Of a stretch of DNA of 64,000 nucleotides, positions 896 to 59,248 are shown one piece after another. The position numbers and the translations under genes are program-made. This stretch comes from an uncultured Poribacteria bacterium. GTDB taxonomy: Bacteria > Poribacteria > WGA-4E > WGA-3G. A model generated the notes under the pieces. It was not told the DNA's origin. It ran no database searches and saw only the letters and a list, made by a program, of their open reading frames with translations. The stretch lies in contig OX638351.1 in assembly GCA_951813565.1 (NCBI GenBank), positions 4,736,001 to 4,800,000 on the forward strand, given 5' to 3'. Numbering within the stretch: position 1 is the first letter of the stretch; every line of letters starts with the position of its first letter.

Positions 896-1103
896 CCTAT
901 AGGCGTCAATTTAAGGATAGATTTTCTTGTAGGAGTGAATCAACGCAGCATGCGCGTGTGACATGCTGCGGGTTTGTAACCCCGATTTAATTAGTTTAGG
1001 TTCACAAAATCGGGGTTATAAACCCCTCCCACAAGAGAATGGTCCGAGGCGCAATGAATTGCGCGACTACAAACGCGTTATTTCTTAAATTGACAGTTAT
1101 GGG
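896..1103. mobile_element. MITE, family C (ends CATAGGYGTCAA(T/C)TTAAG...CTTAARTT(G/T)ACA..TATGGG)
   Basis: Imperfect terminal inverted repeats; related copies at 38941-39177 and 58722-59020; interior contains REP hairpins. Confidence 0.7.
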
Positions 1104-7572: not shown

Positions 7573-7816
7573 CGCGTTGTGCCAGTTAACATTTGGTATA
7601 TTTATATTTCACATGTTCCTTTTGTTTGGGTTTGCATTCCGCAACTTTTCCGATAGCTGCTGTCCTCAAGGTAGGAGGGAACTCCGATTCCCGACTGCAA
7701 ACGTGTCGCGATTCGGAGATCGCTCCCGCCAAATGCCAAAAGCGTATTTGGCGTTGATTCCAAAATATGAACAATTGTGAAAAATAACAAAACTTTCACT
7801 TAACTGGCACAAGTCG
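7573..7816. mobile_element. MITE, family D, with 9-bp target duplication
   Basis: TIR ttgtgccagttaa / ttaactggcacaa; flanks cttgttaaa (7564-7572) and tttgttaaa (7817-7825). Confidence 0.75.
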
Positions 7817-23956: not shown

Positions 23957-24457
23957 TATAGTGGATTTTACAATTAACTGGACATTGTCACTTGGCACGG
24001 ACAAAGTGTTCTACAGTTTTATGGTGAAACCCATAATTATTTTTATACTTTGGTTCATGTGTGAACTTCAAACACACCATGAATGTCCGAGGCGACAAGT
24101 CATGGTGAATACCATACGCGTATTCGCCCAAGTGCGCTTGGCGTTGATTTGGCAATGAATTGCGCTTGGTGAATGCGCCAAATCAAGAAATCAACGGTAT
24201 GAATCATGGCGAATCATGTAGAATACCAAAAGCGTATTCTACCAAGCGCATTCGTCTTTATACCAAATTACCCTAAATCGTAGGGGCGGGTCTCTGTGCC
24301 CGCCCTTACCATCGGCAGTGAAAACAATACAATTCTCGTTAATTTGGTATTAGTCATTCAGCGGGTATGAATGCCTTATGGCATTCCCCGTATGGCATTC
24401 ACATTAAACGCAGCAAACCTATAAAGAACTGTCCAAGTAATTTTAGATTTCACTATA
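23957..24457. mobile_element. Composite family-A MITE with nested elements
   Basis: Both ends match 56725-56955; interior carries micro-hairpin arrays and a family-B MITE. Confidence 0.8.
24261..24349. mobile_element. 89-bp family-B MITE with TTA duplication
   Basis: Appears identical to 51988-52076; interrupts cattcgtcttta|gtcattca, which is intact near 52277-52295. Confidence 0.9.
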
Positions 24458-25730: not shown

Positions 25731-27176
25731 TTACAATCCGTATTTTTTCCACCGTTCATTGACGAGTTCAATAATTTCGTCAGACATCTGAATTTCTGGG
25801 GGCCATTCTCGGTGGTAACCTTCTTCTTCCCATTTCGTTGTGGCATCAATACCCATTTTTGATCCAGCACCGATAAGGGGTGCAGCGTGGTCAAGCACAT
25901 CAACGGGACCCTCAACGATAGTAACATCACGTTTCGGGTCAACATTGCTTCCGACATAAAAAAGGACTTCCTCTACATTTTGAACATCAACGTCTTTGTC
26001 AACGACAATAATAATTTTGCTGAACATCAGTTGCCCAAGTCCCCAAAAACTGTGCATAATCTTTTTAGCTTGGAAAGGATAACGTTTGTCTATTGAAATC
26101 AGGGCGAAGTTGTGAAATACACCAAATAGAGGCAGGTTCATATCAACAAGTTCAGGAAGTTGCGTTTTAATCAACGGCATAAAGATACGTTCGGTAGCCT
26201 TGCCCATATAGCAATCTTCCATCGGCGGTTTGCCGACAATGATGGTTTGGTAGATCGGGTCTTTGCGGTGGGTAATAGCAGAGATACGGAAAACAGGATA
26301 TTCCTCGGGCATGGAATAAAAGCCTGTATGGTCCCCAAACGGCCCTTCAATACAGGTTTCATCCGGTTCAATGAAACCTTCAATGATAATATCTGCATCG
26401 GCAGGCACCATCATATCAATCGTTTTTGCTGCCACCATCTCAACATTGGATTTTCGGAGGAATCCGGCAAACAGCAATTCATCAATCCCTGATGGAAGTG
26501 GTGCTGTGCCGATATAAGACATAATAGGGTCTCCGCCAATAGCAATTGCCACGGGCATCTGTTCCCCTGCTTGTTTATATTCCCGATGATGTGCTGCGCC
26601 ATCGTGGTGAATCTGCCAATGCATGGCTAACGCATAAGGATTTAATTTCTGTAACCGATAGGTCCCAACGTTCCGTTGTCCAGTGTGTAAACTGTGCGTA
26701 AACACTTGTGGTAATGTGATATATCTGTCGGCATCCATCGGCCAACATTTTATGAGTGGCAGCCTGTCCAATGAAGCGTCTTCGCCTGTTAGGACAACCT
26801 CTTGCGATGCGCCGCGTTTGACGGTTTTTGGTGGGAAGTTGGTGAGTTGTGATAGGATTCGGAGGATTTTGACTTTATCCAGAAGTGACTCAGGCGGACC
26901 TATTTTTATCATGCCTTCAATTTCGTAGGCAATGCGTGAAAGGTCATCTACACCGAGTGCCATTGCCATTCGCGTATAAGACCCGTAGGTATTGATGAGT
27001 AGTGGCATCTCACTACCTTCGACGTTTTCAAACAGCAGTGCTGGTCCACCTGCTTTGCTAATGCGGTCAGTGATTTCACTTATTTCAAGGTCGGGTGATA
27101 CCTCTGTTTTAATACGTTTAAGTTCGCCTGCTCTATCAAGTGCCTTTACGAAATCTCTGAGACTGGAATATGCCAT
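25731..27176 (-). CDS. UbiD-family decarboxylase (menaquinone-pathway type)
   Basis: GPALLFENV, RNVG.YR, EGPFGDHTGFY, GKPPMED, SKMGIDAT. Confidence 0.9.
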   Translation of the reverse strand: MAYSSLRDFVKALDRAGELKRIKTEVSPDLEISEITDRISKAGGPALLFENVEGSEMPLLINTYGSYTRMAMALGVDDLSRIAYEIEGMIKIGPPESLLDKVKILRILSQLTNFPPKTVKRGASQEVVLTGEDASLDRLPLIKCWPMDADRYITLPQVFTHSLHTGQRNVGTYRLQKLNPYALAMHWQIHHDGAAHHREYKQAGEQMPVAIAIGGDPIMSYIGTAPLPSGIDELLFAGFLRKSNVEMVAAKTIDMMVPADADIIIEGFIEPDETCIEGPFGDHTGFYSMPEEYPVFRISAITHRKDPIYQTIIVGKPPMEDCYMGKATERIFMPLIKTQLPELVDMNLPLFGVFHNFALISIDKRYPFQAKKIMHSFWGLGQLMFSKIIIVVDKDVDVQNVEEVLFYVGSNVDPKRDVTIVEGPVDVLDHAAPLIGAGSKMGIDATTKWEEEGYHREWPPEIQMSDEIIELVNERWKKYGL

Positions 27177-30368: not shown

Positions 30369-30711
30369 CATGAATCAGTTAACTGAGGGGTGCGCATAAA
30401 TAATTCCGATGTTAAATATGCGCTTAAAGGTAATAGGCACACGCCGTGGGTTTCCGTCCACAAGTTCAAAGAGGCGCAGCATGCCACACGGGGAATGCCA
30501 TAAGGCATTCGGACCCGGTGAATGACTAAAGACGAATGCGCTTTTGGCATTCGCCATGATTCATACCGTTGATTTCTTGATTTGGCGCATGCTGCGTTGA
30601 TTTGGCAATGAATTGCGCGACTACAAACGCATTTCTATAAATCAAGCGGTGCCTGGCGTCTGTCCCTGTCTGTGTTGATGCGCCAAATATTTATGCACAC
30701 CCCTCAGGTAA

Positions 30712-38465: not shown

Positions 38466-38593
38466 CGATAAATCGGATAAACAGACTGTTACCTTAATAT
38501 ACTATAGTTTGGACAATTTTTAGAGTTCTTAGGTAATAGTCTGCCTTAAAAGAACAACTCTTGACATCAATATCGGTTTATTGATACACCTTT

Positions 38594-38811
38594 CGCCCCG
38601 CTGGGGCTAAAGAGGGTTTGTTCACGATGTTTCTATAAACATTCCGCCCCGACAAATGCCATACGGGGAATGCCAAAAGGCATTCATACCCGGTGAATGA
38701 CTAAAGACGAATGCGCTTGGTAGAATACGCTTTTGGTATTCTACATGATTCGCCATGATTCATACCGTTGATTTCTTGATTTGGCGCATTTGGCGTTGAT
38801 TTGGCTGGGGC
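38594..38811. repeat. Twin cgccccgctggggct hairpins, the second split by a 153-bp micro-hairpin array (38651-38803)
   Basis: Direct comparison of the empty and filled copies. Confidence 0.85.
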
Positions 38812-38940
38812 TGCTCTTATTTGCCATGAGGATCTTTTTCTGTGAGTTACGTCCCCGTGAAAAACTCAACGAAAAATGAGAAATACTTGAAAACAGACCA
38901 TGAAATAGTAGTTCGTCCGTCGGGTAGAGCGAATGCGAAA

Positions 38941-39177
38941 CCCATAGGTGTCAACTTAAAGAAATTTACGCGTGCTAAATACCCAACTTATGAGATGACG
39001 ATAGGTGCGCGTTGTAAGTGCGCTGTTTTATCTTCCTGTAGGAGCGACCTCCTGGTCGCGACATATTACGAACGGTCGCGAGCTGGAGATCGCTCCTACA
39101 AGAAGAAAATCGAGCGGACAAGGTTTCCCTCCCACAAGAGAAAATCCAGCATTTTTTCTTAAGTTTACACCTATGGG
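38941..39177. mobile_element. Family-C MITE flanked by a 22-bp direct repeat of a REP
   Basis: gggtagagcgaatgcgaaaccc (38922-38943) and gggtagagcgactgcgaaaccc (39175-39196). Confidence 0.8.
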
Positions 39178-39316
39178 TAGAGCGACTGCGAAACCCGACA
39201 CGTTTACTCCATGTCGGATTTCGCATTCGCTCTACCCGACCTACACCCCACCCACAGACAAAACAGATGAAACTCAATTTCACCAAGACAAAAATTGTCC
39301 AAACTATAGTTAATAT

Positions 39317-41344
39317 ATGCAGAAACAGAAAGTTATAAGAAAAATTGGCGTTGACACGGGCGGCACTTTCACCGACATCATCATGTCTGTGGAAGATTCT
39401 ATTTGGACACATAAAGTGCTTTCCACACCACGCAATCCTGCTCACGCTGTTATAAAAGGTGTGAGTGAAATATTGAATACTCACAACATAGATTCTTATG
39501 ACAATGTAGATATTGTTCACGGTTCTACTGTTGCTACAAACGCCCTACTTGAACGTAGAGGCGCACGTATTGCCCTTGTTACCACAAAGGGTTTTGAAGA
39601 TGTTTTAGAAATCGGAAGGCAGGCGCGCCCCAATCTCTACGATATATTTGTCGAACGCCCCGCACCACTTGTGTCTGCAGAACGCCGATTCGGTGTCCGA
39701 GAACGAACATTGCATACGGGTGAAATTCAAACTGAAATTTCTTCCTCCGATCTTGAGACACTCGCAACACGTCTCGCAACGTTAAATTTAGATGCGATTG
39801 CGATATGTTTCCTTTTCTCTTATGTCAATCCGAAAAATGAACAGATTGTCGCAGATTATCTCGCAAGTCTCAATATACCGATTTCATGTTCTTACGAAAT
39901 CCTGCCCGAATACCGTGAGTATGCGCGTTTTAGTACCACTGTTGCGAATGCATATATCCGTCCCACGTTGGAAAGGCATCTATCTACGCTTACCGAATCG
40001 GAGCGTTTTCCCAAGTCCTTTCGTTTGATGCTCTCAAACGGTGGTTGTATCTCTACAAGGAATTTTAAATCTGCGGGTATCCAAACGGTGCTTTCTGGAC
40101 CCGCTGGTGGCGTTATCGGTGCGTACCACGTCGCCAAAACTGCAGGATATGAAAAGATTATCACTTTTGATATGGGTGGAACTTCTACGGATGTCAGTCT
40201 GTGTGATGACGGCATCTCTATGACAACTGAAAGCACAATCAGCGGTTTGCCGATTAAAGTGCCGTTAATTGACATCCATACTGTCGGTGCTGGCGGCGGT
40301 TCTATCGCCACTGTGGATTCGGGGGGTGCGTTACGCGTCGGTCCTGAAAGTGCAGGGGCTGACCCCGGACCGATATGTTACGGTAACAACGGAAAAGAAA
40401 TTACTGTGACTGATGCTAATCTATTTTTAGGACGTATTTCACCAACGCAGTTTTTAGGCGGACAGATGTCGCTTGCTTATGATGCTACGCAACAATATAT
40501 TGAAAAGTTTGCTGATCGTATCGGACTGTCGGCACTTGAAACTGCAGATGGTATTTTAAAGATTGCCAACGCAGCAATGGAACGTGCTATCAAAGTAATA
40601 TCTGTTGAACGCGGGTTTGATACACGTGATTTTACGCTCGTGTCATTCGGTGGGGCAGGCGGGTTGCACGCCGCATTTCTTGCTGAAAACCTCGGAATAG
40701 GTACTGTACTTATTCCACCAAACGGGGGTTTGCTCTCTGCTTACGGTATGCTATTTGCCGATGTTGTCAAGGATTACTCACAGACGGTGTTATGGAAAAC
40801 TGAAGGTAGTGGCATGGATTTACACAAACAATTAGAGAACGGTTTTGACGCGCTGCTCATCCGCGCAAAGAGCGATATGGAATCGGAAGGGTTTGATTTA
40901 TCACAACTCAATATCAAACGTTCACTGGATATGCGGTATGAGGGGCAATCTTATGAGTTGAATGTGTCTTATATAGATGTGGATACGGATTTTGTGCGTC
41001 AATTTCATGCCATGCACGAACAGCGATTTAGTTATGCACGTCCTGAGGCAACGGTTGAGGTGGTAACCCTACGCCTCTCTGCCATCGGTGAAACTGAAAA
41101 ACCAGCTCGGACTTCTGAACCGCTGACAGATGCTGACCCTTCCGATGCTCGAATATCGCAAAACAGTGTTATCTTTGATGGTGATGTTTATCCAACTGAC
41201 TTTTATCAACGGGAGTCGCTGCGTCCCGGTAATCGGATACAGGGTCCGGCAATTATAACAGAATTCAGCGCGACGACTGTTGTCCCACCCAATTTTTTTG
41301 GTGCTGTTGATGTGTATGGGAATCTGATTTTGGAGCAGAGGTAG
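39317..41344 (+). CDS. Hydantoinase A / oxoprolinase family protein
   Basis: DTGGTFTD, HGSTVATNA, SGPAGG, DMGGTSTD, SAGADPGP. Confidence 0.95.
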   Translation: MQKQKVIRKIGVDTGGTFTDIIMSVEDSIWTHKVLSTPRNPAHAVIKGVSEILNTHNIDSYDNVDIVHGSTVATNALLERRGARIALVTTKGFEDVLEIGRQARPNLYDIFVERPAPLVSAERRFGVRERTLHTGEIQTEISSSDLETLATRLATLNLDAIAICFLFSYVNPKNEQIVADYLASLNIPISCSYEILPEYREYARFSTTVANAYIRPTLERHLSTLTESERFPKSFRLMLSNGGCISTRNFKSAGIQTVLSGPAGGVIGAYHVAKTAGYEKIITFDMGGTSTDVSLCDDGISMTTESTISGLPIKVPLIDIHTVGAGGGSIATVDSGGALRVGPESAGADPGPICYGNNGKEITVTDANLFLGRISPTQFLGGQMSLAYDATQQYIEKFADRIGLSALETADGILKIANAAMERAIKVISVERGFDTRDFTLVSFGGAGGLHAAFLAENLGIGTVLIPPNGGLLSAYGMLFADVVKDYSQTVLWKTEGSGMDLHKQLENGFDALLIRAKSDMESEGFDLSQLNIKRSLDMRYEGQSYELNVSYIDVDTDFVRQFHAMHEQRFSYARPEATVEVVTLRLSAIGETEKPARTSEPLTDADPSDARISQNSVIFDGDVYPTDFYQRESLRPGNRIQGPAIITEFSATTVVPPNFFGAVDVYGNLILEQR

Positions 41345-41428
41345 TTTTGTCCAAATTGATTGACTTCTAATGTAGTATTGTGGTAAACTTCAACTTGTGA
41401 ATCACAATCCTTTTAGCGGAGTTAACCT

Positions 41429-43045
41429 ATGCCTACACTTGAATTCAACGGAAAACACCATATTTATACCTACCACCTCACTGTTCCCTACCGCCCACTT
41501 GAAAAAGACGAAAGCCGCTCCTGCAACGCGACCAGTGAAAACGATAACCTAATTATTCACGGTGACAACCTGCATGCCTTAAAAGCATTGTTGCCTCGCT
41601 ATGTGAACCGAATCAAGTGTATTTATATTGATCCACCCTACAACACGGGCAACGAAGGATGGGTTTACAACGACAACGTAAACAGTCCGTTGATGCAGGA
41701 ATGGCTAAAAGAAAATGGACCAGTTGATGAAGAAGACCTTGAGAAACATGAAAAGTGGCTCTGTATGATGTGGCCAAGGTTGCACCTGCTCAAAGAACTC
41801 CTTGCCGAAGATGGCGTAATTTTTATTTCTATTGATGATAACGAACAACACCGCTTGCGGATGTTGATGGATGATATTTTCGGAGGACAAAACTTCGTCA
41901 CAAACATAATTTGGCAGAAAAAATTTAGTCCGCAAAATGACGCAAAATATTTTTCGGATAATCACGATTTTGTGGTATGTTACGCAAAGAATAAAGAGAC
42001 ATGGAGGCCGGTTTTACTGCCGCGAACCGAAAAACATAACAAGCGATATTCTAATCCCGACAATGATCCCCGAGGACCTTGGAGTTCAAGCGGATTAGAT
42101 GTTAAAACCTATCAAGAAGAATACGACTACCCAATCACTACTCCATCAGGACGAATTGTTAATCCTCCGACAAGTAGATGTTGGAGGTGTAGTAAAGAGA
42201 AATTTGATGAACTAATTAATGACAATCGGATATGGTTTGGTGAAGAAGGCAATAATGTTCCTCGCGTAAAGCGGTTTCTATCAGAAGTTAAGCAAGGTAT
42301 CACACCTCTAACTGTATGGCTACATGAAGATGTTGGACATACTCAGAGTGCAACGCAGGGACTTAACAAGATCGGTGTTGCATTTTCAAACCCTAAACCG
42401 CATACACTGATAAAACGCATCTTACAAATCGGTACTGATCCCGATTCTATTATCCTTGACTCTTTTGCAGGCAGCGGTACTACCGCCCACGCTGTACTTG
42501 CCTTAAATAAGGAAGATGGTGGCAACCGCAAATTTATCCTCATTGAGTGTGAAGATTATGCCGACACTACCACTGCAGAACGGATTCGGCGCGTTATTAA
42601 GGGTGTTCCCGATGCAAGTGATGATGGACTGCGTGAAGGTTTAGGAGGATCTTTTACCTACTGTACCTTGGGTGAATCGCTTGAAATTGAGGCGATGCTT
42701 ACCGGAAAGAAGTTACCAACATACACAACACTTGCTACTAATCTGTTGTTTACTTCTGCAGGTATTTCTATTGAGGATAATACGTTGGATCAGAAAAATG
42801 ATGACGGACTTTTTTACAGTGATGACAAAAACGATTACTATCTGATTTACAAACAAGACTTTGATTATTTACGTAGCAACGAAGCAATCCTAAATCTGGA
42901 GCATGCCAAACGTATCCAAGATTCCAGTACCGAAAACGGCAAAAAAGCGATTGTCTACGCGGCAGGAAATTATATCGGACAGCGCGAACTTACAAAGATG
43001 GGAATTGCATTTTGCCAACTACCATATTGCATACATGAAAGATAA
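41429..43045 (+). CDS. mod: Type III R-M adenine methyltransferase
   Basis: IYIDPPYNTG before DSFAGSGTT (beta class); adjacent to a helicase-nuclease. Confidence 0.9.
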   Translation: MPTLEFNGKHHIYTYHLTVPYRPLEKDESRSCNATSENDNLIIHGDNLHALKALLPRYVNRIKCIYIDPPYNTGNEGWVYNDNVNSPLMQEWLKENGPVDEEDLEKHEKWLCMMWPRLHLLKELLAEDGVIFISIDDNEQHRLRMLMDDIFGGQNFVTNIIWQKKFSPQNDAKYFSDNHDFVVCYAKNKETWRPVLLPRTEKHNKRYSNPDNDPRGPWSSSGLDVKTYQEEYDYPITTPSGRIVNPPTSRCWRCSKEKFDELINDNRIWFGEEGNNVPRVKRFLSEVKQGITPLTVWLHEDVGHTQSATQGLNKIGVAFSNPKPHTLIKRILQIGTDPDSIILDSFAGSGTTAHAVLALNKEDGGNRKFILIECEDYADTTTAERIRRVIKGVPDASDDGLREGLGGSFTYCTLGESLEIEAMLTGKKLPTYTTLATNLLFTSAGISIEDNTLDQKNDDGLFYSDDKNDYYLIYKQDFDYLRSNEAILNLEHAKRIQDSSTENGKKAIVYAAGNYIGQRELTKMGIAFCQLPYCIHER

Positions 43046-43054
43046 GGGGGAAAG

Positions 43055-45640
43055 ATGCTGGAATTAAAAACATATCAGCGCGATACACTCGACGCATTTA
43101 GCAACTGGTTAGAGGTGCTTAATGAGGAGCGGCAAGCTTCAAAAACTACAATTGAACATTTGGAACAAGCGGGGAGTAGTATTAGTGACGATGTTCTCAA
43201 TGAAATAGGTAATTATCCCAAAACTGCGTGGCGGAAATTGAAAGAAAACGATGGCGTTGCAGCAACTGCAGGTGAATACGTTGATCGTAAGGATGGCGCA
43301 AACCGACCAATTCCGCACATCTGTTTTAAAGTGCCGACAGGTGGCGGTAAAACGTTGCTTGCTGCATCTGCATTAGAACAACTGCATCGGCAGCGAGGAC
43401 TGACATTATGGGTTGTGCCAACAAAGGCTATCTTTGATCAAACAAAAGCTGCATTGTGGAACAAAGAACACCCCTATCGTAAAGTTTTGGAACGTGCAAG
43501 TGCTGGGCGCGTCAAGATGCTGGAAAGAGAACATCCATTTAACAGAGATGACATTACTAATTACCTTTGTGTCATGCTACTCATGTTGCCAGCAGCGAAT
43601 AAATCGCCTGATAAAAAACTGAAAGACAAAGCGTACTACCGCATGTATAGAAATTCGGGGCGTTACGCGAGTTTTTTCCCTGACCATGACGACAAAGAAG
43701 GCAATGCACTTATGCGAAAGAAATACTGCGATCTTGATTATAACGCTGAAAATGACTTTCCTATGCAAAGTCTCTTTAACGTAATCAAGTTACTGCGTCC
43801 TGTAGTTGTTCTTGACGAGGCACATAAGGCTTATGGCACTAAAAATGGACAGGAATTTGCAAGTTCTATTAACCGCCTTGACCCGCAAATGGTTATTGAA
43901 CTCTCTGCTACACCGAACAGCGGCATTAGCAATTTGCTTGTTGATATTGCAGGCCCCGATCTCAAAAAAGAGGAAATGATTAAGTCGCCTGTACAAGTAT
44001 CCTCATTTTCAGGTATGACGTGGCAAAATACGTTGAGCGAGGCTTCCAAGGAACTTGAAAGGCTTGATGAGGAGGCAAGTTTGCTTGAAAGCAGTACGGA
44101 TCGATATATCCGTCCGATCGCTGTTGTGCGCGTTGAGGTAACGGGTGCGAATCTGCAAGATGGCAAGCGAATCCATGCCGAAGATGTTCGAGATTACCTT
44201 ACACAAAACTTAAATGTGCAACCAGAGGCTGTCCGCGTTAAATCTGCTTATAATGATCAACTCCGTGGGGAAAACTTACTATCCAAGGAATCACAGGTAA
44301 AATGGATAATTACAAAATCTGCTTTGATGGAAGGATGGGACTGTTCGTTTGCATATCTGTTAGTGATGTTAGACAATACACGGTCGCAAAATGCAATTAC
44401 GCAACTCATAGGAAGAGTAATGCGGCAACCACATGCGCAACTTACGGGTAGAGAATCACTTGATCAATGTTATGTTTTTTGCAATGAGACCGATGTTGAT
44501 GACGCTGTCAAGCAAGTTAAGAGAGGGTTAGAATCACAAGGACTTACTGGCATGGAAGATAAAATATTTGCTAAGGGTAATACCCAGGATCAAGCAGATT
44601 TCAAAATAGAAAAGATACGCCGTCGCGAGCAATTTCGTGGGCAAGAGATTTATTTGCCAGTGGTACGCCATAAGGACGGTGACGAATGGATTCAACTCAA
44701 TTATCAGGCACATATTTTGCCACATATAGATTGGCTTAGTATTAAACCACCCGATCTGAATGCGTCATCACCCGACGGACCAAGATTGCGAACAGCAACA
44801 GTTCCTATTGACGATGTGCCGCCTGTTTTCCATGAAGATCAAGAGCCTTATGTTGAAAAACAGGTTAGTGTTGCCGATTTTGCTCTCAGTTTGATTGACA
44901 TTGTATCAAATCCATGGCAAGCTGGTCGCATTGCAGAAGAATTGGTAGAAGGTCTAAAAAGAAGTGGAGATACTGATGAAAAAATCTACGACAGACGTTC
45001 ATATCTCATTCCTATGTTACATGAACACGTGGCAAATGAATTAGAAAATCAAGCTGAGCAAATTTTCCAAAAAAAGTTGGATACTGGCGAAATTCAATTT
45101 GACTTAGCGGTAGGTGAACCGAATTATAAACTGCGTCAAAATTACAAAATTGAGGTACACGCCAATCAGAATTTACTTACAAAATATGGTAAACCTGTTC
45201 AACTCAGTCTGTTTGAACCTATGTATGAATATCCTTCAGATAACGAATTAGAAAAGAAATTTGCACATTTTCTTGATGGTGAGAAAGCACTGCAATGGTG
45301 GCATCGGGTAATAGCACGTCAACAAGGTGAATATTACGTGCAAGGTTGGAAAGATAGACGCATTTACCCAGACTTCGTTGCGATGGCGAAGGAAGTTGAT
45401 GACATGACGCGTGTTCTGATTTTTGAGACAAAAGGAACACATTTGGAAGGTAACCGTGACACAGAGTACAAGGAAAAGGTATTGAAAGTCCTTGAAGAAG
45501 TGTTTAATAGCTCAGGTACTACAGGAATGTGTGAAAAAAGGACACATTCAGGGATCTTTCAATTAGTTTTTGATAATGATCCGCAGTTTTCAGCAATACG
45601 TGCTCGATTGAATGAAGGTGCATATTCTACGGAAAATTAG
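43055..45640 (+). CDS. res: Type III R-M restriction subunit
   Basis: VPTGGGKT, DEAH, SAT, EGWD, QLIGR..R, YPDF...ETKG. Confidence 0.9.
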   Translation: MLELKTYQRDTLDAFSNWLEVLNEERQASKTTIEHLEQAGSSISDDVLNEIGNYPKTAWRKLKENDGVAATAGEYVDRKDGANRPIPHICFKVPTGGGKTLLAASALEQLHRQRGLTLWVVPTKAIFDQTKAALWNKEHPYRKVLERASAGRVKMLEREHPFNRDDITNYLCVMLLMLPAANKSPDKKLKDKAYYRMYRNSGRYASFFPDHDDKEGNALMRKKYCDLDYNAENDFPMQSLFNVIKLLRPVVVLDEAHKAYGTKNGQEFASSINRLDPQMVIELSATPNSGISNLLVDIAGPDLKKEEMIKSPVQVSSFSGMTWQNTLSEASKELERLDEEASLLESSTDRYIRPIAVVRVEVTGANLQDGKRIHAEDVRDYLTQNLNVQPEAVRVKSAYNDQLRGENLLSKESQVKWIITKSALMEGWDCSFAYLLVMLDNTRSQNAITQLIGRVMRQPHAQLTGRESLDQCYVFCNETDVDDAVKQVKRGLESQGLTGMEDKIFAKGNTQDQADFKIEKIRRREQFRGQEIYLPVVRHKDGDEWIQLNYQAHILPHIDWLSIKPPDLNASSPDGPRLRTATVPIDDVPPVFHEDQEPYVEKQVSVADFALSLIDIVSNPWQAGRIAEELVEGLKRSGDTDEKIYDRRSYLIPMLHEHVANELENQAEQIFQKKLDTGEIQFDLAVGEPNYKLRQNYKIEVHANQNLLTKYGKPVQLSLFEPMYEYPSDNELEKKFAHFLDGEKALQWWHRVIARQQGEYYVQGWKDRRIYPDFVAMAKEVDDMTRVLIFETKGTHLEGNRDTEYKEKVLKVLEEVFNSSGTTGMCEKRTHSGIFQLVFDNDPQFSAIRARLNEGAYSTEN

Positions 45641-45818
45641 CATCGTAAGGCACGAAATCAACGAGTCGATTCACACCTACCAATATCCTCCCAAAATTGA
45701 CATTTTTTATCGGGTATGTTAGTATTCTGTTTATTAGGCGTGAAAGCTGGAGCCAATCACCTAACGACTCATAATTGAACAAAATTATCAGATTTGATAG
45801 AGAATTATATTATAAGGA

Positions 45819-46592
45819 GTGATTACGATGAAAGTATTGATATTCGTTATGTCATTTACCTTTCTCTTGGCGTGGATGACTATAGGTGTTACCGCTGAAG
45901 AAGCTGCATTAGTGGCTTACTATTCGTTTGACGGTAATTCTGATGATACTTCTGGAAATGGAAACAACGGTGTAATTAAAGGTGATTCTAAGTGGGATAA
46001 AGGTAAATTTGGAGACGCAATCCATCTGAATGTAGGGGCGCACGTTGAGATGCAGGCATCCGATACACTACATGGTGACCTCTTTAAAAGTGATCCTTTT
46101 ACAATCTCTGTCTGGATCAATCCAACCTTTGAAGGCGGTGCATGGCAACAGATTTGGCGGAGTTTACCCGGTGCTTCCGGACATAACACCTTCTTTGTCA
46201 ATAAAGATCAAGGCTTACTGTCTTGGCGAGGACAGGTCGGCGGATGGACAATCCTGTGTCAAACAGATGGAGGTGTGGTCAAAAAGAGTGAGTGGACTCA
46301 TGTGGTTGTTCAAAGCGATGGTAAGAATTTCAGAATTTATGTAAATGGTGAGATGGCTAAAGAAACGGAATTCCAAGAAACCAGAGGTGCTAATGCAATT
46401 TATCGGCTTGGTGGAGAAGGTGGTGAAGGTTATGGCGGTGCAATAGATGATGCCGCTGTCTATTCCCGTGCTTTAGACGAAGATGAGATCACCGCTTTGG
46501 GTAAAGGACTTGATGAGTTTTTACCTGTTGAACCTCAAGGCAAGCTTACTACGAAATGGGCATACATTAAACGTTCAGGGTTTTCGCGATAG
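45819..46592 (+). CDS. Secreted LamG-like domain protein with conserved C-terminal tail
   Basis: LVAYYSFDG, WTHV, G.IDD..VY.RAL; tail PVEPQGKLTTKWAYIK. Confidence 0.85.
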   Translation: MITMKVLIFVMSFTFLLAWMTIGVTAEEAALVAYYSFDGNSDDTSGNGNNGVIKGDSKWDKGKFGDAIHLNVGAHVEMQASDTLHGDLFKSDPFTISVWINPTFEGGAWQQIWRSLPGASGHNTFFVNKDQGLLSWRGQVGGWTILCQTDGGVVKKSEWTHVVVQSDGKNFRIYVNGEMAKETEFQETRGANAIYRLGGEGGEGYGGAIDDAAVYSRALDEDEITALGKGLDEFLPVEPQGKLTTKWAYIKRSGFSR

Positions 46593-46755
46593 AAACGTTT
46601 ATCCTTACGTTATAACGTATTGCGCGGTAGAAATCGATGGATGTCGTCCTTCCCTCTGTTAAAGTAAGTAAAACGCAATTAAAGTTGACAAATCATGTCT
46701 TGAATAGTATCATTTAAAGGGTATAAGTTGCGATTTACATCAGTAGAGGAATAGA

Positions 46756-51987: not shown

Positions 51988-52076
51988 TACCAAATTACCC
52001 TAAATCGTAGGGGCGGGTCTCTGTGCCCGCCCTTACCATCGGCAGTGAAAACAATACAATTCTCGTTAATTTGGTA
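51988..52076. mobile_element. 89-bp family-B MITE with TTA duplication
   Basis: Twin of 24261-24349. Confidence 0.9.
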
Positions 52077-52154
52077 TTAGTTCTCGGTTATCAGTAAAAC
52101 AGTCTCTTCTGAAAGATAACCGTCTTTTAATGTACTTATGTGGTAGCACACATT

Positions 52155-52467
52155 TATAGTAAAATCCATAATTGTTTGGACACTACGAATCAACGCCTCA
52201 TGCGCCAAATCAAGAAATCAACGGTATGAATCATGGCGAATCATGTAGAATACCAAAAGCGTATTCTACCAAGCGCATTCGTCTTTAGTCATTCACCGGG
52301 TATGAATGCCCTTTGGCATTCCCCGTCCGGCATTCGTCCAAATCAACGCTGAATACACCTATGGCATTTGTCGGGTCGCTCCTATAGGAAGAGGCGCAAT
52401 GAATTGCGCGACTACAAACGCCTCTAACCTTAAGAAAATGTAGAAGGTATTTTTAGACTTTACTATA
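52155..52467. mobile_element. Family-A MITE with micro-hairpin array, flanked by 25-bp direct repeats
   Basis: atgtacttatgtggtag(c/a)acacatt at 52130-52154 and 52468-52492. Confidence 0.8.
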
Positions 52468-56256: not shown

Positions 56257-56558
56257 TAATAGATATTGATCGGGTACAACTCTGGACTATAAGAGGGAGA
56301 AAAAGCAAGCAGGACCGAAACAAATACTTTGCTCCATGAATCAACGCCAAATGCGCTTTTGGGTATTTGGCGGCATGTGCGGACTACCTTTAAGCACATA
56401 TTTAACATCGGAATTATTTATACACACACCCTCATACATAATTGGAAAGTGTAGCAGAGATTGAAATTATTAAAAGTGTAAATATATACAAGAAATGGTA
56501 TCATTCCTTAAAACTATTCCAGTAAAATGTTTATTTTAATTTGACAAATGATTATATT

Positions 56559-56599
56559 GATAATGACATTCATTTTCATTGATATTGAGTATCATTATT
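56559..56599. promoter_or_regulatory. Two tandem Fur-box-like operators
   Basis: gataatgacattcattttc and gatattgagtatcattatt versus consensus GATAATGATAATCATTATC. Confidence 0.65.
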
Positions 56600-56724
56600 A
56601 TATATACACATAATGGAAAAAACAATATTTCAGTATAGCATTGCGTGGAATGATCGTATAATTTCCTAATTGCAGATAATTATCTACCATTTTGAGCAAT
56701 GTAAAAAAATGAGAAAATTGCAGA

Positions 56725-56955
56725 TATAGTGGATTTTACAATTAAACGGACATTGTCACTCGGCACGGACAAGGTGTTCTACAGTTTTAAAGTCGCGACC
56801 TGCGAATCAACGCCAAATGCGCCAAATCAAGAAATCAAAGGTATGAATCATGGCATTTGTCGGGTCGCTCTACAGGAAGAGGCGCAATGAATTGCGCGAC
56901 TACGAACGCATCAAACCTATAAAGAACTGTCCAAGTAATTTTAGATTTCACTATA
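56725..56955. mobile_element. Family-A MITE
   Basis: Ends shared with 23957-24457. Confidence 0.8.
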
Positions 56956-58440: not shown

Positions 58441-59248
58441 TATAGTGAAACCTAAAATAATTAGACACTTTCCTCCCACGGTAGGCGAGGAATGCTTAAA
58501 TGGCATTCCCTGTATAACATTCGCCATGATTTGTAGCATTGATTTGGAGGTTTACTAATACCAATTCTAAAATACAATGTCCCATTTACCATACTGTAAT
58601 TTAATGGAATATCAACAGAAGAAAGAATGTCCGAGGCGACAAGTCATGGCGAATACCATACGGGGAGTGCCTAATACCACATTAACTTGATTCATATTTA
58701 TGGAGCAGTTAGGAAAACGTACCTTATGCGTCAATTTAAGGATATACCCTCTTGTGGGAGGGAATCAACGCAGCATGCGCGTTTGGCATGCTGCCAAATC
58801 AACGCCAAATGCGCTTTTTGGCATTTGGCGGGTTTTCAACCCCGATTTTCTTCTGTAGGAGCGACCTCCCGGTCGCGAGCTGGAGCTCGCTCCTACAGAA
58901 TGTCCGAGGCAACAAGTCATGGCGAATACCACGCGTATTCGCCCAAGTGCGCTTGGCGTTGATTTGGCAATGAATTGCGCGACTACAAACGCTTTTTTTC
59001 TTAAATTGACAGTTATGGAGCGGTTAGGAAACCGCTCCTACCGTCCGGAAAATGCGATAAATCCCGTTAATTTGGTATAAATGGCATTCATACCGTTGAT
59101 TTGGCGTATTCGCCCAAGTGCGCTTGGCGTTGATTTGGCAATGAATTGCGCGACTACGAACGCGTTTTTGTTAATGAGAAGTTATTATTTAGAAATGGTA
59201 TAACCTCGCTGGTGCGGCGTGTCCGATTAATTTCTAAAGCCTACTATA
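58441..59248. mobile_element. Multi-level nested MITE stack
   Basis: Family A > family B (58559-59200) > family B (58675-59077) > family C (58722-59020) > REPs with micro-hairpins. Confidence 0.8.

Follow-up and report, generated by a model that had tools for sequence, protein, structure and literature searches.

A REP-like family of tagged hairpins, without an enzyme of its own, that nests in host repeats and in itself in a Poribacteria genome

Introduction

How can a short hairpin come to hold a nested palindromic array of 153 nt in its loop, when a sister hairpin 51 bases away is empty and the junction shows no duplication longer than a possible single base? The question is raised by positions 38594-38811 of a stretch of 64,000 nt, here called the window, which corresponds to genome positions 4736001-4800000 of an uncultured Candidatus Poribacteria bacterium, with a genome that is a single contig of 5.43 Mb and 43% G+C. 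An earlier note, made from the letters of the window, had proposed an ultra-short non-autonomous element moved by an HUH enzyme, which inserts without target duplication into REPs and into its own copies and builds self-nested palindromes in this way. The flanking gene for a 2-hydroxyacid dehydrogenase has relatives in Candidatus Poribacteria MAGs, with up to 91% amino-acid identity. A cyanobacterial reading, with repeats of the Nostoc SDR type, was rejected because GCGATCGC is found in just 50 copies in the genome and because the relatives are Poribacteria.

Results

The focal locus is made up of the features below, given with window positions and strand; a caret marks the point of insertion here and in the rest of the text.

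38584..38612 (+): empty REP copy, tag ACACCTTTC and hairpin GCCCC-GCT-GGGGC (38595-38607), folding at -6.1 kcal/mol
38635..38651 (+): left half (ATAAACATTCCGCCCCG) of the filled twin REP, a direct repeat with 82% identity to 38584-38600
38652..38804 (-): 153-nt nested insert in the REP loop at CG, reading forward on the minus strand
38652..38665 (-): outer unit, 3' part, with the remaining loop CGTATG and stem arm GCATTTGT
38666..38784 (-): inner 119-nt block, placed at the loop CG of the outer unit, context CAAATGCG^CGTATGGC
38706..38757 (-): innermost 52-nt segment, two +24-nt hairpin steps tagged CATG; 4 nt in the paralogue
38785..38804 (-): outer 34-nt unit, 5' part, with tag CCAAATCAACG, stem arm CCAAATGC and a G
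38805..38811 (+): right half (CTGGGGC) of the filled twin REP

Exactly 153 nt separate the two parts of the twin, GCCCCG at 38646-38651 and CTGGGGC at 38805-38811. The junction slides by 1 nt only, and the insertion bar of the earlier note and ours are two equivalent placements within that slide, so that its description of an empty hairpin beside a filled twin without duplication holds. When folded, the insert forms a single long nested hairpin (-29.3 kcal/mol, z -3.15), and its 119-nt block is the grown form of a 35-nt unit, CCAAATCAACGGTATGAATGCC..GGCATTCCC. Inner blocks of 35, 71, 95 and 119 nt share contexts in the genome; CAAATGCG^CGTATGGC holds the 35-, 71- and 119-nt forms, and the 95-nt form is found in the sister context AGCATGCG^CGTGTGGC.

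The empty hairpin GCCCCAGCGGGGC has 72 copies in the genome, and only two GCCCCAG sites are filled by a unit. These two are paralogues within a segment of ~440 bp that is present twice with 97-98% identity, the second copy near genome position 674,776, and the focal array has exactly 52 nt in its innermost part where its one paralogue has 4 nt. Since the filled sites are duplicated paralogues that differ inside, the outer insertion predates the segmental duplication, and the array was changed later at the level of units. The duplication also means that amplification of whole composites contributes to the copy counts, and much of the copy number is due to composites multiplied in this way. The arrays vary in length from 35 to 71, 95 and 119 nt, and between the two paralogues, and do not travel as a single fixed block, a possibility that the earlier note had wanted checked. 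Public contigs that skip from 38705 to 38758 with 4 letters between derive from other copies.

De novo repeat mining across the genome, which had been proposed as a check, gave CCAAATCAACGC as the commonest 12-mer, with 357 copies. The basic unit is 34-35 nt long and consists of the tag CCAAATCAACG, 11 nt that are predicted to be unpaired 5' of the hairpin foot, followed by an 8-bp stem and a loop of 7-8 nt. Before the foot stands ..ATCAACG, and pairing of the tag's last CG with the CG 3' of the unit lengthens the stem to 9-10 bp. There are 1270 sites with AATCAACG in the genome, and a hairpin (8-bp stem with at most one mismatch, loop of 3-11 nt) follows directly at 379 of them, compared to 28 of 3968 sites for scrambled tags, which were 20 permutations of the same eight letters. 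In the window AATCAWSG is found 34 times, with 13.6 expected, and none of 100 shuffles reaches that number.

Among simple units the tag has the form CCAAATCAACG in 58% and G[N]GAATCAACG in 41%, and of the 411 simple units found 252 have a loop of 7 nt and 114 one of 8 nt, the typical loops being GCGTTTG, GCGTATG, GCGTCCG, GCGTGTG and GCTTTTTG. The largest stem families are CAGCATGC/GCATGCTG with 113 units and CCAAATGC/GCATTTGG with 72, and further families are CTGAATGC/GCATTCAG, CCAAATAC/GTATTTGG and CTGAATAC/GTATTCAG, which means that one invariant 11-nt tag is joined to at least five different stems. Because the families differ on both arms, stem pairs 2, 3, 4 and 7 covary, with compensatory changes. 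The two ends of the unit are asymmetric, with the tag on one side and the stem on the other; the 3' end is just the stem plus a C, and inverted core sites are missing from both ends.

The units are mostly intergenic, with 277 of the 1270 AATCAACG sites (22%) inside open frames of at least 600 nt, to be compared with 2367 of 3000 random points (79%). Genome-wide they form 848 islands of ~50 kb in total, or 0.9% of the genome; 616 of the islands have a single tag, and orientation is mixed in 92 of the 232 islands with several. The two orientations are found 659 and 611 times. The markers for the origin disagree (the minimum of cumulative GC skew is at 0.49 Mb, that of gene orientation at 1.2 Mb, and dnaA at 1.96 Mb), and no origin was fixed. 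A search of the focal region against Rfam gave no family match, just two microRNA models far below threshold, and of 10 matches to the tag pattern in viral contigs none was followed by a hairpin.

All 16 positions that the earlier note had listed for AATCA-type units do hold one, that near 58490 in a degenerate form. There are 15 AATCAACG islands in the window, and those at 26169 and 45656 were discarded as chance matches, having no hairpin after AATCAACG. The following sites illustrate the simple, tandem and nested forms.

938..968 (+): simple unit, stem CAGCATGC, tag variant GTGAATCAACG, within a GTAG/GTGG-type repeat
7729..7759 (-): simple unit, stem CCAAATAC, beside a GTAG REP
24095..24152 (-): 58-nt insert in the REP ..ATTCATTG^CGCCTCGG
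30477..30605 (-): 129-nt nested insert at the same REP position, outer stem CAGCATGC, inner 95-nt block at 30491-30585
56339..56370 (+): simple unit, present in the contigs of all four public runs that reach it
58763..58828 (+): tandem pair of units; second unit, 35 nt (58794-58828), inserted cleanly at GCATGCTG^CGGGTTTT
58912..58967 (-): 56-nt insert in the REP, left junction base mutated, coordinates read by eye

The REP GAGGCGCAATGAATTGCGCGACTAC is empty at 1046, 2915 (with one mismatch), 52391 and 56879, and holds an insert, always at one base and in one orientation, at 24095-24152, 30477-30605 and ~58912-58967, just as had been described. A fourth filled copy has its right junction at 59130, where the earlier note had only a unit site.

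Filled and empty sites were collected from the whole genome as pairs of repeated 12-mers that are adjacent somewhere and elsewhere 12-300 nt apart, and an event was counted if the insert could be written as beginning with the tag, contexts being defined as 8+8 nt. This gave 382 events, of which 309 have CG as the 3' flank, 50 are tandem, with the next unit following, and 23 are of other kinds, mostly partial matches. The 309 CG events are spread over 35 contexts, which together with the outer stem make 71 combinations, and the junction is ambiguous by 0-3 nt, at most sites by 1 nt. The claim of insertion without duplication, into REPs and into other units, is thereby supported in the form of 34-35-nt modules that are present or absent at a constant junction, and such modules with exact ends are also found in unrelated flanks. 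Filled and empty copies are paralogues rather than alleles, and it is from their comparison that we infer movement as such.

In a strict set of single units (n=144), 85 sites in 16 contexts read as CCA+core before CG, which is equivalent to CA+core+C placed at C^G. A further 25 read as TG+core+C at GTGGGAG^GGGTT and 3 as CG+core+C at the same place, and 4 are core+CG at CCCATA^GGTG; the contexts GTGGGAG^GGGTT and CCCATA^GGTG are parts of one larger repeat. The first base past the hairpin is C in 98% of the 379 units and the second is G in 68% and C in 31%, and 109 of the 379 continue as CCA straight into the next tag. In five low-copy species of the genus, 10 simple units were read by eye, and C follows in 10 of 10 and CG in 7 of 10.

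The polarity was read from the REP ..ATTCATTG^CGCCTCTT, with 35 filled and 87 empty copies and 23 different inserts from several stem families. Its junctions are forward in 96 cases and reverse in none, although CG is palindromic. Some composites recur, and one 69-nt REP insert is found nine times and one 35-nt insert, at GCATGCTG^CGGGTTTT, 20 times.

The loop of the unit itself contains the CG target, which explains the self-nesting. For stem CAGCATGC the loop is 7 nt long in 118 units, 42 nt (equal to 7+35) in 19, 78 nt in 5, 102 nt in 6 and 126 nt in 17, and what remains of the original loop (GTGTG, GTATG or GTCCG) is retained 3' of the nested insert. At 10 sites a unit on the opposite strand sits in the single CG of GCTTTTTG loops. 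The inner steps are different. Those of +24 and +28 nt are replacements or tandem duplications rather than clean insertions, and our attempt to peel the 119-nt block into clean insertions failed at them. One inner step is a tandem copy of a 27-28-nt hairpin module, with 8 nt of junction ambiguity, and in two others 4 nt of the loop are replaced by 28 nt starting with CATG; one array has three tandem modules, and loops are seen in both orientations relative to the tag. Of the proposal that self-nested palindromes are built by insertion, the outer nesting at the loop CG is thus supported, and the inner +24 and +28 nt steps and the amplified composites depart from it.

The tag 12-mer is above background in all 39 other genomes of the genus, with 1 to 212 copies compared to 357 here, numbers that are undercounts as the exact 12-mer misses variants of the tag. 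In most other genera of the phylum it is at background (0-6 per genome, and one genome with 11), and the reversed 12-mer, read backwards as a control, has 0-4 copies. High counts are found in the nearest species (88% identity) as well as in distant ones (73-79%). The focal spacer is 850 bp long here and ~65-70 bp in the nearest relatives read (L001-L005). In 80 kb from each of two genomes with 88% identity (G104 and G098) the gene order is conserved, and three spacers hold quite different repeats, which makes a comparison at the level of units impossible there; neither these spacers nor the contigs of public runs gave an empty site at the level of alleles. The species is present in four public runs from four studies, the contigs of which stop at the clusters 38527-39156, 52012-52393 and 56421-56928, and the joints listed at those breaks come from other copies. 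The only unit that they bridge is the one at 56339-56370, present in all four runs. The repeat family explains why regions of this kind break short-read assemblies, and it shows the fast pace at which the DNA between genes is reshaped in an uncultured symbiont of sponges.

The genome has 10 loci with the Y1/HUH domain PF01797, all outside the window, and the statement that no HUH gene lies within it was thus correct. Five are TnpA genes with strong IS200/IS605 scores; one IS605-like copy has an adjacent TnpB gene, and three more copies align with it throughout. Two proteins exceed the cut-off of NF047646 (REP-associated tyrosine transposase), with 132.5 and 116 bits against 80, and the remaining loci are one broken RAYT, one IS200-like solo gene and one broken copy of that solo gene. 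Intact solo Y1 genes number three, the two RAYTs at genome positions 242008-242493 and 5070803-5071252 and the IS200-like gene at ~3097971-3098471. RAYT or TnpA genes flanked by units had been suggested as a check, and with a limit of 900 bp none of the 10 Y1 loci is bracketed by units. Two RAYT genes have a single unit ~60-100 bp upstream. Among the 20 strongest of the 30 RAYT loci listed for the genus a unit is nearby (260 bp) in only 2, and their flanks hold other repeat hairpins, mostly GTAG-type REPs; nine loci of a weaker Y1 class have 1 tag among them. With no Y1 locus bracketed by units and other hairpins around the RAYT genes, this is an orphan family.

The ends of the resident IS605-like elements, as seen from an alignment of five Y1 loci, of which the four IS605-like ones are mutually alignable, have the right end ..CCTACCTTTAGGTAGTGGGTACCTATGAC and are unlike the units. 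There are 234 gaps between islands, 139 of them mostly filled by one open frame, and the first 80 of these 139, read by eye, are ordinary unrelated genes of which none recurs. Of the ultra-short nesting element moved by HUH that had been proposed, the discrete modules, the constant scarless junctions and the nesting have stood up, and what speaks against the HUH mover is the lack of a bracketed Y1 locus and the dissimilar IS605-like ends. One genome (G110) has 206 tag copies and RAYT matches that are all weaker than 1e-12. A RAYT match with E <=1e-40 is found in 7 of the 8 genomes with more than 100 copies (one of them broken) and in 13 of the 32 with fewer, an association to which we give no weight because the groups were set after the counts had been seen and the genomes are kin. 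The focal REP family flanks, as inverted copies, the solo IS200-like Y1 gene at genome position 3098010. A hairpin family of this genome that is distinct from the units flanks a Y1 gene and nests in its own loops, with three classes of 51-53-nt inserts and 7, 7 and 3 events.

Discussion

The account that we favour, and which in our judgement is about evenly balanced between being right and wrong, is that the units are genus-specific, non-autonomous tagged REPs that are inserted at CpG and for which a Y1 HUH enzyme of the IS200/IS605-RAYT kind, acting in trans, is the likely mover. Copies would be placed at a CpG that can be read as N^CG or as C^G, in or beside hairpin repeats and in the loops of earlier units, with an orientation fixed for each target strand and with no target duplicated. 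Nested palindromes would then arise from repeated hits, because every unit carries a fresh CG in its loop, and the composites would spread further through movement of the host repeats and through segmental duplication. The enzyme would act in trans on single-stranded hairpin DNA, and the two tag bases at the hairpin foot (CG) would guide cleavage at C^G.

The case for a Y1 enzyme in trans is indirect, and is built on the asymmetry and shortness of the units, the polarity, the lack of duplication, the unpaired tag at the 5' foot, the guide rule and the second nested family. The elements of the IS200/IS605 group move as single-stranded circles, and 35 bp is too short for a double-stranded circle or synapsis. 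Size, polarity and stem covariation together suggest a single-stranded route for the units as well. According to the structural work on the TnpA-REP of E. coli (PMC3479197), the T and the C of its cleavage site C^T are set by GTAG bases 3 and 4, respectively. Carried over to the tag, whose last two bases are CG, this rule would predict cleavage at C^G, and the junction can be read in that way, with N^CG as the equivalent alternative. Binding of GTAG by the RAYT is base-specific in that published account (PMC3479197), and a RAYT of the GTAG kind may for this reason not accept the tag of the units.

More tentatively, and with failure the likelier outcome, the 34-35-nt unit could be a complete substrate for single-stranded transposition and among the smallest known, with both its ends, its guide and its own loop target, and driven in trans. 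The driver may then be a Y1 enzyme that is not flanked by units, or come from a family of enzymes so far without a connection to REPs. If this is true, the unit colonises its own copies and builds fractal palindromes, and it would give junctions at the level of single bases for the movement of a single REP, which is still unresolved for classical REPs.

It is unlikely, although with clear points in its favour, that the units are immobile and stem from a few ancient insertions that were later amplified by host repeats with RAYTs of their own, by segmental duplication and by gene conversion. Identical composites do recur, such as the 69-nt and 35-nt inserts, the focal filled hairpin lies in the duplicated ~440-bp segment, and the TG+core+C and core+CG junctions are each found in essentially one context, in the same larger repeat. 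Amplification surely contributes. One junction rule is however common to the 35 contexts and the 71 combinations of context and stem, the exact-ended module is found in unrelated flanks, a single REP position has 23 different inserts, and the tag 12-mer ranges from 1 to 357 copies within the genus, where it is the tag and not the host REP families that was counted.

Replication errors without any enzyme, by fold-back priming and template switching between stalled forks over 1-2 nt of microhomology, are a rather improbable source of the family as a whole. The inner steps fit such errors well, with the 28-nt tandem duplication, the three tandem modules and the replacement of 4 nt by 28, as do the loops in both orientations relative to the tag, and template switching may account for them. 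It does not agree with an invariant unpaired tag of 11 nt on five or more stems, with a junction that is constant despite only 1 nt of shared sequence, or with the strict polarity of the REP inserts. Neither amplification nor template switching explains one exact module in 35 contexts with strict polarity.

We think it more doubtful still that another recombinase, of the IS110 type, a Xer-like tyrosine recombinase or one of an unrecognised family, acts on the folded hairpins much as an integron integrase does on attC sites. The searches for a dedicated Y1 gene were negative, which leaves room for it, and IS110-family elements target REPs and leave no long duplication. The units, on the other hand, have a 3' end of stem plus C and no inverted core sites, they are too short for a double-stranded synapsis or circle, and no gene recurs between pairs of islands in the first 80 of the 139 intervals; a reading as integron attC sites was dropped by eye because the 3' end has no inverse core. 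That the hairpins are kept by selection as signals in RNA or DNA, for instance as transcript stabilisers or protein-binding sites, with their spread being secondary, would suit the intergenic placement and the compensatory stem changes, but is very improbable when no Rfam family matches the focal region, species of a single genus vary from 1 to 357 in copy number, orthologous spacers lack conservation and the units interrupt each other.

In comparison with known systems, the units differ from the MITEs of DDE transposons in that they have no terminal inverted repeats, with a tag at one end and a stem at the other, and no target-site duplication. They resemble IS200/IS605 elements and their miniature derivatives in part, with asymmetric ends, presumably recognition by way of a hairpin, strict polarity in the REP and no target duplication. 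They have, however, one hairpin where those elements have two subterminal ones, the resident IS605-like ends do not resemble them, and the fixed flank is two bases (CG) 3' of the insert instead of a tetra- or pentanucleotide on the 5' side. The cyanobacterial SDR1-8 of Elhai et al. 2008 are reportedly imperfect palindromes of 21-27 nt that are found inside one another without a known enzyme, in which they would resemble the units; phylum and sequences are different.

The GTAG-23 REP of Thermomicrobium roseum sits within the palindrome CCGSSCC(n3,4)GGSSCGG (PMC3733652), and resembles the units in being placed in the middle of a short GC-rich palindrome of which many empty copies exist as well, as at 38594-38811. 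The inserted element there is a GTAG REP, and the passages on it contain neither nesting of unit in unit nor a CG rule (PMC3733652). The CGTC-tagged REPs of Di Nocera et al. (2013) have stems of 8-9 bp and "apparently lack a dedicated transposase" (PMC3733652). Like the units, they are tagged hairpins that seem to have no enzyme of their own, and as described there their CCA tail is the same as the first three bases of the unit tag (PMC3733652). In the units, however, CCA is on the same side of the hairpin as the ..AACG of the tag, whereas CGTC REPs have it at the other end, and the loops are 7-8 nt compared to 4-5 nt (PMC3733652). The families published there, with the tag CGTC or TGTC/CCTC, are mostly head-to-head dimers (PMC3733652).

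Closest are the REP, BIME and REPIN repeats and their RAYTs in E. coli and Pseudomonas (PMC3479197, PMC3733652, PMC3116915). As far as these accounts describe them, they are likewise short, extragenic high-copy hairpins with an unpaired tag at the 5' foot, several stem subfamilies, a patchy copy number among relatives and RAYT genes in the genome, and have a dinucleotide cleavage or target site next to a guide rule. The tag of the units is the 11-nt CCAAATCAACG and not GTAG, their site is CG and not CT, and they insert systematically into their own loops. Single units and direct tandems outnumber inverted doublets, unlike in REPINs, and clean inserts of single units are common; no RAYT gene flanked by units was found among the 10 loci here. 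The family thus fails three features that define REP/RAYT systems, namely the GTAG tag, the flanking RAYT and the inverted doublet as the replicating unit. No literature on such repeats in Poribacteria was found within the limited library that was searched, and our verdict is that this is a new tagged REP-like family without an enzyme of its own.

The propagation mechanism of REPs "remains unclear" according to the structural paper on TnpA-REP from 2012 (PMC3479197), and the CGTC REPs are described as a whole super-family without a known enzyme (PMC3733652). The family presented here offers hundreds of paralogous filled and empty pairs, a junction that is exact to the base, a simple CG target and a long tag that can be mutated. 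It also carries a prediction that can be tested, that the CG of the tag directs cleavage at C^G, in a genome with only a handful of candidate Y1 genes, and is an unusually clean view of how tiny hairpin repeats may spread.

Insertions into hairpin loops

The loops of ACACCTTTC-GCCCCGCTGGGGC hairpin copies hold doublets of 51-53 nt that belong to the same hairpin family, and these inserts fall into three classes (n=7, 7 and 3 events). Since the doublets are nested in loops of their own family, loop-targeted nesting is not restricted to the AATCAACG units. Places where the family is found include:

Window 38584-38612, ACACCTTTC-GCCCCGCTGGGGC hairpin
Genome ~3097971-3098471, flanks of a solo Y1 gene

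This IS200-like gene lies outside the window, encodes 166 aa and has no adjoining TnpB, and the hairpin copies on its two flanks are inverted.

A second type of micro-hairpin, with the tag (AAT)CATG, is present at window 38706-38757 and 30533-30561 and at many other loci, and it has one and the same context at every locus. The hairpin stands as 28 nt in place of 4 loop nucleotides, a net gain of 24, and in the focal array (the 153-nt nested insert at 38652-38804) this replacement step occurs twice, one after the other. No simple insertion rule accounts for the replacement steps of this micro-hairpin.

In a low-copy species, a locus of a genome of the same genus (L093, G097:C2:545024-548035, positions ~1500-1540) has a single short hairpin that is common to two inverted tags, in the order tag, stem, loop, stem and reversed tag. 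This palindromic form with two tags and one hairpin was not seen in the window.

Surroundings of the focal array

The focal hairpin pair lies in a segment of ~440 bp with two copies in the genome, at window ~38500-38940 and near genome position 674,776, with 97-98% identity. The surrounding spacer (window 38466-39316), which separates the dehydrogenase gene from the caprolactamase/hydantoinase-like one, is repeat-rich and 850 bp long. It measures ~65-70 bp in the nearest relatives examined (loci L001-L005); other relatives have an unrelated insert of ~100 bp here, with the hairpin GGTAGGCGAGGTTTCCTAACCTCGCC.

The segment at window 41344-46750 is strain-variable over ~4.4-5.4 kb, and is skipped by contig joints in three of the four public sequencing runs compared:

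X1 and X2, joint from 41343 to 46751
X9, joint from 41339 to 45690

The fourth run has no letter differences from the window across its listed pieces. Genome-wide, the estimates of the origin conflict (GC skew 0.49 Mb, gene orientation 1.2 Mb, dnaA 1.96 Mb); either the two strands of the chromosome differ very little in composition and gene content, a very weak asymmetry, or the chromosome has undergone rearrangement.

GTAG REPs

Outside the window, a GTAG REP (GTAGGAGCGAGC..) related to the GTAGGAGCGACC.. family forms a tandem array after a RAYT gene (genome 242008-242493). At window 39037-39100 two GTAG REPs form an inverted pair, with arms of 26 nt that are 88% complementary and 12 nt between them, and this pair is a REPIN-like form of the GTAGGAGCGACC.. 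family.
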